This document shows positions 2,757-4,658 of a DNA stretch of 5,230 nt, piece by piece. Position numbers and translations under genes: made by a program. Below the pieces are notes generated by a model, which was not told the DNA's origin, made no database searches, and worked only from the letters and a program-made list of their open reading frames with translations. Source of the DNA: a virus (lineage: Duplodnaviria; Heunggongvirae; Uroviricota; Caudoviricetes); the IMG/VR virus record IMGVR_UViG_2713896780_000009; one strand, given 5' to 3'. Numbering within the stretch: position 1 is the stretch's first letter; every line of letters starts with the position of its first letter.

Positions 2757-4658
2757 TCATCCTCTCCGGATAAGGCACGGGCGTATTCTGCCAGTGTTTT
2801 CTTGTTGGTTGCTGCACCATCCTCTTCCTGCAGGCTCGCCAGCAGTGCACTGAGATCCAGCTGCCAGCGGGAAATACTGATGCGCAGCGCCGCCAGCGCA
2901 TAAACGAAGCAGTCGAGCGCCTCATTGCGTCGCTTTTTGCTGTCCCACAGTATTTTTTTCCTGCCATCCACCCATTTTTCGACCTGCTCTTCAGCAGTCA
3001 GTTGCTGCGCTTCGGTAAGATCAAAAATATCCGGGTTATTCGGGAAGTGAACGGCACCGGGAAGCGGTTCATCCCCTTCCGGCGTCAGTGTGAAGCGGTT
3101 ATAAATCTGCTCTTTCGCGGTATCCGTACCGATTTCGGTAAGGTAAACCCCGTTTTTGTTTCGCTTACGTGGCATGCTGGCCACTGGCTTTCCGTAGACG
3201 GATGCCCCTTTAATGGGGATCACCCGGAACAGCCCATGTTTTTTCGAGCGTTCATACACAATGGTCGGGTCAATCCCGCCAGTATCCCAGCAGATACGGG
3301 ATACCGACATTTCTGCACCATTCCGGCGGGTATAGGTTTTATTGATGGCCTCATCCACACGCAGCAGCGTCTGTTCATCGTCGTGGCGGCCCATAATAAT
3401 CTGCCGGTCAATCAGCCAGCTTTCCTCACCCGGCCCCCATCCCCATACGCGCATTTCGTAGCGGTCCAGCTGGGAGTCGATACCGGCGGTCAGGTAAGCC
3501 ACACGATCAGGAACGGGCGCTGAATAATACTCTTTCCGCTCCGCCATCACCTCAGCATCCGGACGTTCGCCGATTTTCGCTTCCCACGTCTCACCGAGCG
3601 TGGTGTTCACGAAGGTTTTACGTTTTCCCGTATCCCCTTTCGTCTTCATCCAGTCTTTGACAATCTGCACCCAGGTGGTGAACGGGCTGTACGCCGTCCA
3701 GATGTGAAAGGTCACACTGTCAGGCGGTTCAATCTCTTCACCGGATGACGAAAACCAGAGAATGCCATCACGGGTCCAGATCCCGGTCTTTTCGCAGATA
3801 TAACGGGCATCAGTAAAGTCCAGCTCCTGCTGGCGGATGACGCAGGCATTATGCTCGCAGAGATAAAACACGCTGGAGGGGTCATCCGGCGTCCATTTGA
3901 GGCCAAACGGCGTCTCTTTGTCGCCAAATTTAAGATACTGCTCCTCCCCGCAGTGCGGGCAGGCAACATGAAAACGCATAAAATGCGGGGATTCACTGGC
4001 TGCACGCTCAATCTGGCAGGTGCCTCTCACTTTGGGCGTGGAGCCACGGATGGACTTTGGCCAGACCGAGCCTTCAATACGNNNNNNNNNNNNNNNNNNN
4101 NNNNNNNNNNNNNNNNNNNNNNNNNNNNNNNCCCGCCACATCCACCGACTTTTCACGGTAGTTTTTTGCCGCTTTACCGCCCAGGCACCAGAAGCCACGA
4201 CCATTGGAAAAACGCTTCATAGTGAGCGTGTTATCCCGGTGCTTTTTGCCATACCACGGAGCCAGCGCCAGCAGCGACGGAATATCGCGGATGGTCGGCT
4301 CAACGTGGGTTTTCATAAAGTTCTCGGCATCACCATCCGTCGGCAACCAGATAAGTGTGTTGCGCTGCTTATGCTCTATGAAGTAGGCATAAACACCCAG
4401 CAGCATTTTGGAATAACCAACACGGGCAGACTTCACCACATTCACCTCGCGGATGTAGTCGCTGCCCATCGCATTCATGATGGCCCGCTGAAAGGGCAGT
4501 GTTTCCCAGCGCCCTTCCTGGTATGCGGATTCTTTCGGGAGATAGTAACTGGCATCCGCCCATTCAACGGCGGTCTGTGGCTCCGGCCTGAACAGTGAGC
4601 GAAGCCCGGCGCGGACAAAATGCCGCAGCCTGTTAACCTGACTGTTCGATATATTCAC
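2753..4658 (-). CDS. A: Terminase large subunit gpA (ATPase/endonuclease), complete apart from the N run at 4082-4131, which causes an artefactual frame change.
   Basis: The N-terminal 175 residues (ORF 4074..4658, [23 protein letters not shown]...[10 protein letters not shown]) and C-terminal part (second frame ending at 2753, [29 protein letters not shown]...[13 protein letters not shown]) both match lambda gpA. Walker A-like segment KSARVGYSK (residues 76-84) lies at 4407-4433. Start ATG at 4658 overlaps the nu1 3' end by 26 nt. Confidence 0.93.
4082..4131. other. Run of 50 N (unknown sequence) inside gene A; a placeholder whose length is not the true length.
   Basis: The gpA frame is = 2 mod 3 above the gap and = 1 mod 3 below it. 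Lambda has 24 residues (GYDELAAFDDDIEQEGSPTFLGDK, from memory) between ...KSVDVA and RIEGSV..., i.e. about 70 hidden nt against 50 N; the 20-nt difference exactly explains the frame change. Confidence 0.85.

Follow-up and report, generated by a model that had tools for sequence, protein, structure and literature searches.

Gene content of the window

The stretch of DNA analysed here (5,230 nt at full length; hereafter, the window) constitutes an entire 5.2-kb scaffold of a draft STEC genome and carries a head-packaging module of the lambda type, Nu1-A-W-B-C. Its N content consists of a single N and two runs of exactly 50 N, one of which falls within gene A, the gene for the terminase large subunit. 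The features of the window, including the two open reading frames (ORFs) that a mechanical translation draws from gene A, are as follows:

1-971, minus strand: gene C, S49 peptidase with nested Nu3, incomplete at the left record end and broken by the second N run
594, no strand: single ambiguous base N, with C in 29 relatives and T in 36
800-849, no strand: second 50-N run, corresponding to 134 nt in relatives
952-2553, minus strand: B, portal protein, 533 aa, intact
2550-2756, minus strand: W, head-tail joining protein, 68 aa
2753-4658, minus strand: terminase large subunit gene A, interrupted by a 50-N run
2753-4081, minus strand: gene A codons 200-641 and stop, matching Pfam GpA_ATPase positions 166-237 and GpA_nuclease
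2753-4204, minus strand: mechanical ORF of 483 aa with an ATG start; the genuine C-terminal portion of A, running back across the N run to a spurious ATG
4074-4658, minus strand: mechanical ORF of 194 aa with a GTG start; the true N-terminal part of A, then the N run and a wrong-frame stop
4082-4131, no strand: 50-N run, read from flank comparison as scaffold-gap filler for 70 nt (lambda 1238-1307)
4132-4658, minus strand: gene A codons 1-175 and the first 2 nt of codon 176, with a GTG start, matching Pfam GpA_ATPase positions 3-130
4633-5178, minus strand: Nu1, terminase small subunit, 181 aa, sharing 26 nt with the start of A, like its lambda counterpart

Gene A was found in the place expected of it, between Nu1 and W-B-C and with its start overlapping the end of Nu1. 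The gene order, the GTG start, the 26-nt overlap with Nu1, and both Pfam domains are common to the window and lambda gpA (NP_040581.1, 641 aa), from which the visible part of the window's protein differs at five amino acids; no further difference was found. The GTG start, at one point considered as an unusual feature, was dropped as such, since lambda has the identical GTG.

Source record and assembly

Sequence comparison shows the window to be identical, in reverse complement, to record LEAB01000076.1 over its full length (5,230 bp; assembly GCA_001309815.1). LEAB00000000 (BioProject PRJNA277539) is the genome of E. coli O145:NM strain 03-6430, isolated from a human and carrying stx1 and eae, which was sequenced on a HiSeq instrument with 100-bp paired reads, a 300-bp insert, and 528x coverage, and assembled with ABySS 1.3.4 (PMC4563881). 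The source is a scaffolded short-read draft assembly. The scaffold ends 52 nt upstream of the start of Nu1 on one side and within gene C on the other, and the gene call on the record itself already has A split, into products of 176 aa and 442 aa.

Over its whole length, the window is 99.7% identical to the Stx1a-converting lambdoid prophages of non-O157 STEC (for example, LC645431.1)—its own source strain being stx1-positive—and 99.8% identical to prophages of complete STEC genomes, including O145 and O111. On 5.2 kb of sequence, the scaffold could derive either from the Stx1 prophage or from a different co-resident lambdoid prophage that has the same head module.

The apparent split of gene A

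The starts of the 194-aa and 483-aa ORFs lie 454 nt apart, which puts the two in different frames, with an overlap at 4074-4204. An earlier note on this DNA had described this division of gpA into two ORFs overlapping at the N run; its coordinates were confirmed, as was the run of exactly 50 N. Both mechanical ORFs cross the run because codons containing N are not counted as stops. The 194-aa ORF thus ends in SVDVAG, 17 X, Y, and a stop, and the 483-aa ORF opens with 24 spurious residues, followed by 17 X, before reaching true gpA residues.

Upstream of the gap, gene A comprises 527 nt (175 codons plus 2 nt), and downstream of it 1,329 nt (442 codons plus the stop); the missing fill must therefore have a length of 1 mod 3 for the frame to be kept. 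Insertion of the 70-nt fill taken from a relative (plus strand, CTTATCGCCCAGGAACGTCGGAGAGCCTTCCTGTTCAATATCCTCATCAAAGGCAGCAAGTTCATCATAA) yields 1,926 nt and a single ORF of 641 codons, the length of lambda gpA.

The length of 70 nt is borne out by every relative compared. The 50 nt on each side of the gap correspond to lambda 1188-1237 and 1308-1357 with one mismatch, and in lambda these flanks are separated by 70 nt; the spacing between identical flanks is likewise 70 nt in the Stx1a phage and in phage Kati. The same spacing was found in all 141 loci fetched by flank-pattern scans and BLAST. Among these loci, which were chosen for exact flanks of the A gap, there are 16 distinct DNA fills and five peptide variants, and none contains a stop. 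It recurred in 9/9 independent assemblies that encode the identical portal protein. In the E. coli search, which returned 3,361 matching E. coli records, 29 matches sampled in even steps down the ranking all align without gaps across the site (470/470), at identities from 100% down to 96.4%. A fixed-50 pattern found no 50-nt spacing between the flanks in viral_contigs or metagenome_contigs, and a pattern allowing 45-75 nt found solely the 70-nt spacing in genome_contigs and among the 120 viral_contigs matches listed.

These comparisons bear out what the earlier note had proposed: that the residues flanking the gap are contiguous with lambda gpA on both sides, that the frame offset is that of a 50-nt placeholder for about 70 nt of real sequence, and that a true length of 1 mod 3 (for example, 70 nt, encoding about 24 residues) would restore a 641-aa ORF, for which the arithmetic is exact with the relative's 70 nt.

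The scans of genome_contigs also recovered the exact flanks of the gap in A, with 70-nt spacing, on short contigs in the assemblies of organisms unrelated to E. coli, among them Pseudoxanthomonas, Chromatium, Kitasatospora, Enterococcus, Shewanella, Amycolatopsis, and Bradyrhizobium. A coverage near 1x is given in the names of several such contigs, and three have lengths of about 48.4-48.5 kb; the contigs resemble contaminating lambda DNA.

Fifty N as a fixed filler

The second run, at 800-849, provides a further measure of what 50 N represent in this record: it replaces 134 nt in all relatives compared. As the two runs of 50 N stand for 70 nt and 134 nt, respectively, the length of an N run here is independent of the true distance, and 50 N is a fixed filler rather than a measured length. 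Across the 5,129 determined bases, the window and its nearest relatives are collinear, with no indel and only 7-13 substitutions (seven against the closest relative), and the combined shortfall of the two runs (20 + 84 = 104 nt) is precisely the difference between the window, at 5,230 nt, and the matching span of 5,334 nt in relatives.

The second run lies within gene C (S49 peptidase/Nu3 scaffold). Its shortfall of 84 nt is a multiple of three, and, hence, no frameshift is visible in gene C; read literally, the run would nevertheless make gpC 28 residues too short, silently.

The ABySS scaffolder (abyss-scaffold) has a default minimum gap of 50 N; a literature search for this default gave no usable statement. 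The window agrees with the fixed-N gaps of unknown length seen in draft assemblies in its equal, round runs of 50 N, its collinear flanks, and its origin in an ABySS draft. Nothing in it is unusual for such drafts; the gaps are short.

The apparent frameshift in A is thus explained, with a probability of roughly 95%, as an artefact: a scaffold filler with a fixed length of 50 N takes the place of 70 nt, and gene A itself is ordinary and almost certainly intact. The scaffolder would have joined three contigs and marked every join with a fixed 50 N, regardless of the actual spacing. Because the join in A would really span 70 nt, the record would be 20 nt short at this point and the codons downstream displaced by one frame, a displacement that would give rise to the 194-aa and 483-aa ORFs, with the real gene being a single 641-codon terminase large subunit. 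The bases of strain 03-6430 hidden under the run are presumably intact.

Why the assembly broke within the module

With coverage of 528x, the gaps would be due to repeats or polymorphism rather than to a lack of reads. The contig breaks were probably caused by differences between several co-resident copies of lambdoid prophages. In the 15 best-matching genomes, six of which bear an O145 label, each record has the head module in three to five places; the overall maximum is seven places per genome. The identical portal protein always lies on a contig of less than 10 kb, in every assembly found to contain it, which is what repetition of the module among several lambdoid prophages would lead one to expect.

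Other observations point the same way. Diversity among relatives places the two hidden stretches at the 94.8th and 97.9th percentiles of windows of the same size, although this comparison is biased by the selection of loci for the exact flanks of the gap in A, and common polymorphic sites adjoin one edge only of each gap; a coincidence of the gaps with polymorphic stretches is thus suggestive only. The lone N at 594 falls on a C/T site that is divided 29:36 among relatives (approximately 45/55), where commonly polymorphic sites make up 6% of all sites, and a contig of another STEC assembly starts exactly at this base. This suggests that the N is a mixed base call from co-resident prophage copies. 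As a whole, the pattern is consistent with assembly-graph branch points at which near-identical prophage copies diverge.

Co-residence of such copies also raises the prospect of a chimeric scaffold, with its three contigs drawn from different lambdoid prophages of the same cell. Mismatches with about 150 loci were counted segment by segment to assess this, and the outcome was not convincing. The multi-copy state of the module in complete genomes (three to five places in each of the 15 best matches) and the position of the lone N on a common polymorphism speak in its favour, as does the fact that no relative is perfect for all three segments: perfect matches exist for segment 3, but segments 1 and 2 each show two to five differences from the best relatives. 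However, the closest relative differs at only 7 of 5,129 bases, which ordinary divergence explains, and the best relative shows no switch from segment to segment that would demand chimerism. A chimera is unlikely; it is compatible with the filler artefact and, even if real, would leave the conclusion on the frameshift unchanged.

Integrity of the gene A product

The visible residues, 1-175 and 200-641 (617 in total), are 100% identical to WP_001027330.1, an intact 641-aa RefSeq protein annotated in complete STEC genomes, and residues 176-199 are those under the N run. Against lambda, the visible part of A differs synonymously at 30 codons and non-synonymously at five, an excess that indicates purifying selection. 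The reconstructed protein matches Pfam GpA_ATPase (E=1.3e-50) and GpA_nuclease (E=3.5e-74). Since the two visible pieces match the GpA_ATPase profile at positions 3-130 and 166-237, they are two halves of one domain, and the second piece contains in addition the full GpA_nuclease domain. The visible N-terminal piece also contains the Walker A motif KSARVGYS, with R79, as listed for gpA (PMC6379665).

In relatives, the hidden residues 176-199 read (G)YDELAAFD[D/E]DIEQEGSPTFLGDK, residue 185 being D or E. The Walker B motif VAGYD is cut by the run, such that V174, A175, and two bases of G176 are visible in the window, while Y177, D178, and E179 lie under the N and are present in 141/141 relatives. 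D178 ends the Walker B motif and E179 is the catalytic carboxylate, every change of which is lethal in lambda (PMC6379665); the hidden stretch, holding both residues, is therefore functionally essential.

When gene A was examined as a frameshifted pseudogene, no indel against the nearest relatives was found in the 5,129 determined bases and all length differences were confined to the N runs. A programmed ribosomal frameshift was considered as well and rejected, since relatives encode a single uninterrupted ORF of 641 codons.

An inactivating change could in principle lie under the N run of strain 03-6430 as well, whether a stop, an indel, or an altered Walker B or E179, and A would then be a true pseudogene in a defective prophage. 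Prophage genes do decay, as gene C, annotated as frameshifted in one complete O145 genome, illustrates. Yet neither a stop nor a change of length occurs in the hidden stretch in any of 150 relatives (the 141 loci and the nine assemblies with the identical portal protein), and the identity of the 617 visible residues to an intact protein, the purifying selection evident from the codon differences, and the intactness of all neighbouring genes argue against decay. Such a hidden lesion is very improbable. The same slender chance attaches to a lesion in the Walker B/E179 stretch. The packaging motor of a lambdoid, possibly Stx1a, prophage would then be dead, and the assembly might have broken at this spot because co-resident copies differ there. 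Scarcely credible, finally, is a length-true run of 50 masked bases with a real 20-nt deletion shifting the frame of A: some collections do mask with N while keeping length, and the frame offset alone is compatible with such a deletion, but a second deletion, of 84 nt, would be needed that also left exactly 50 nt under the other run, the 50-nt spacing is absent from the viral and metagenome collections searched, every relative compared has 70 nt, and the source is a scaffolded draft.

The judgement of the earlier note that the gene is most likely intact and should not be called a pseudogene therefore holds, with the visible residues being those of an intact RefSeq protein and the relatives containing no stop.

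Related records and consequences for annotation

Phage Kati (PP925833.1, 3037-4962) has an intact A of 641 codons with a GTG start, which is annotated as a terminase large subunit of 581 aa together with a hypothetical protein of 47 aa in another frame, and a Logan contig (875-2620) bears the same 581-aa call for A. This call looks like a miscall of the start codon, with no real difference in the gene. In the complete genome of E. coli O145 RM11626-C1 (NZ_CP035768.1, 1-1253), the annotation treats gene C as a frameshifted pseudogene, and the module falls 2 nt short of its length in other relatives; the cause is either genuine decay or an indel introduced in assembly.

The significance of the split in gene A is one of annotation quality only. 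Where a 50-N filler is taken literally, the terminase large subunit is split or called a pseudogene, and N-run lengths in similar drafts are unsuitable for arithmetic of frame or length. A lambdoid, possibly Shiga-toxin-converting, prophage of a clinical STEC strain could in this way be misjudged as packaging-deficient.
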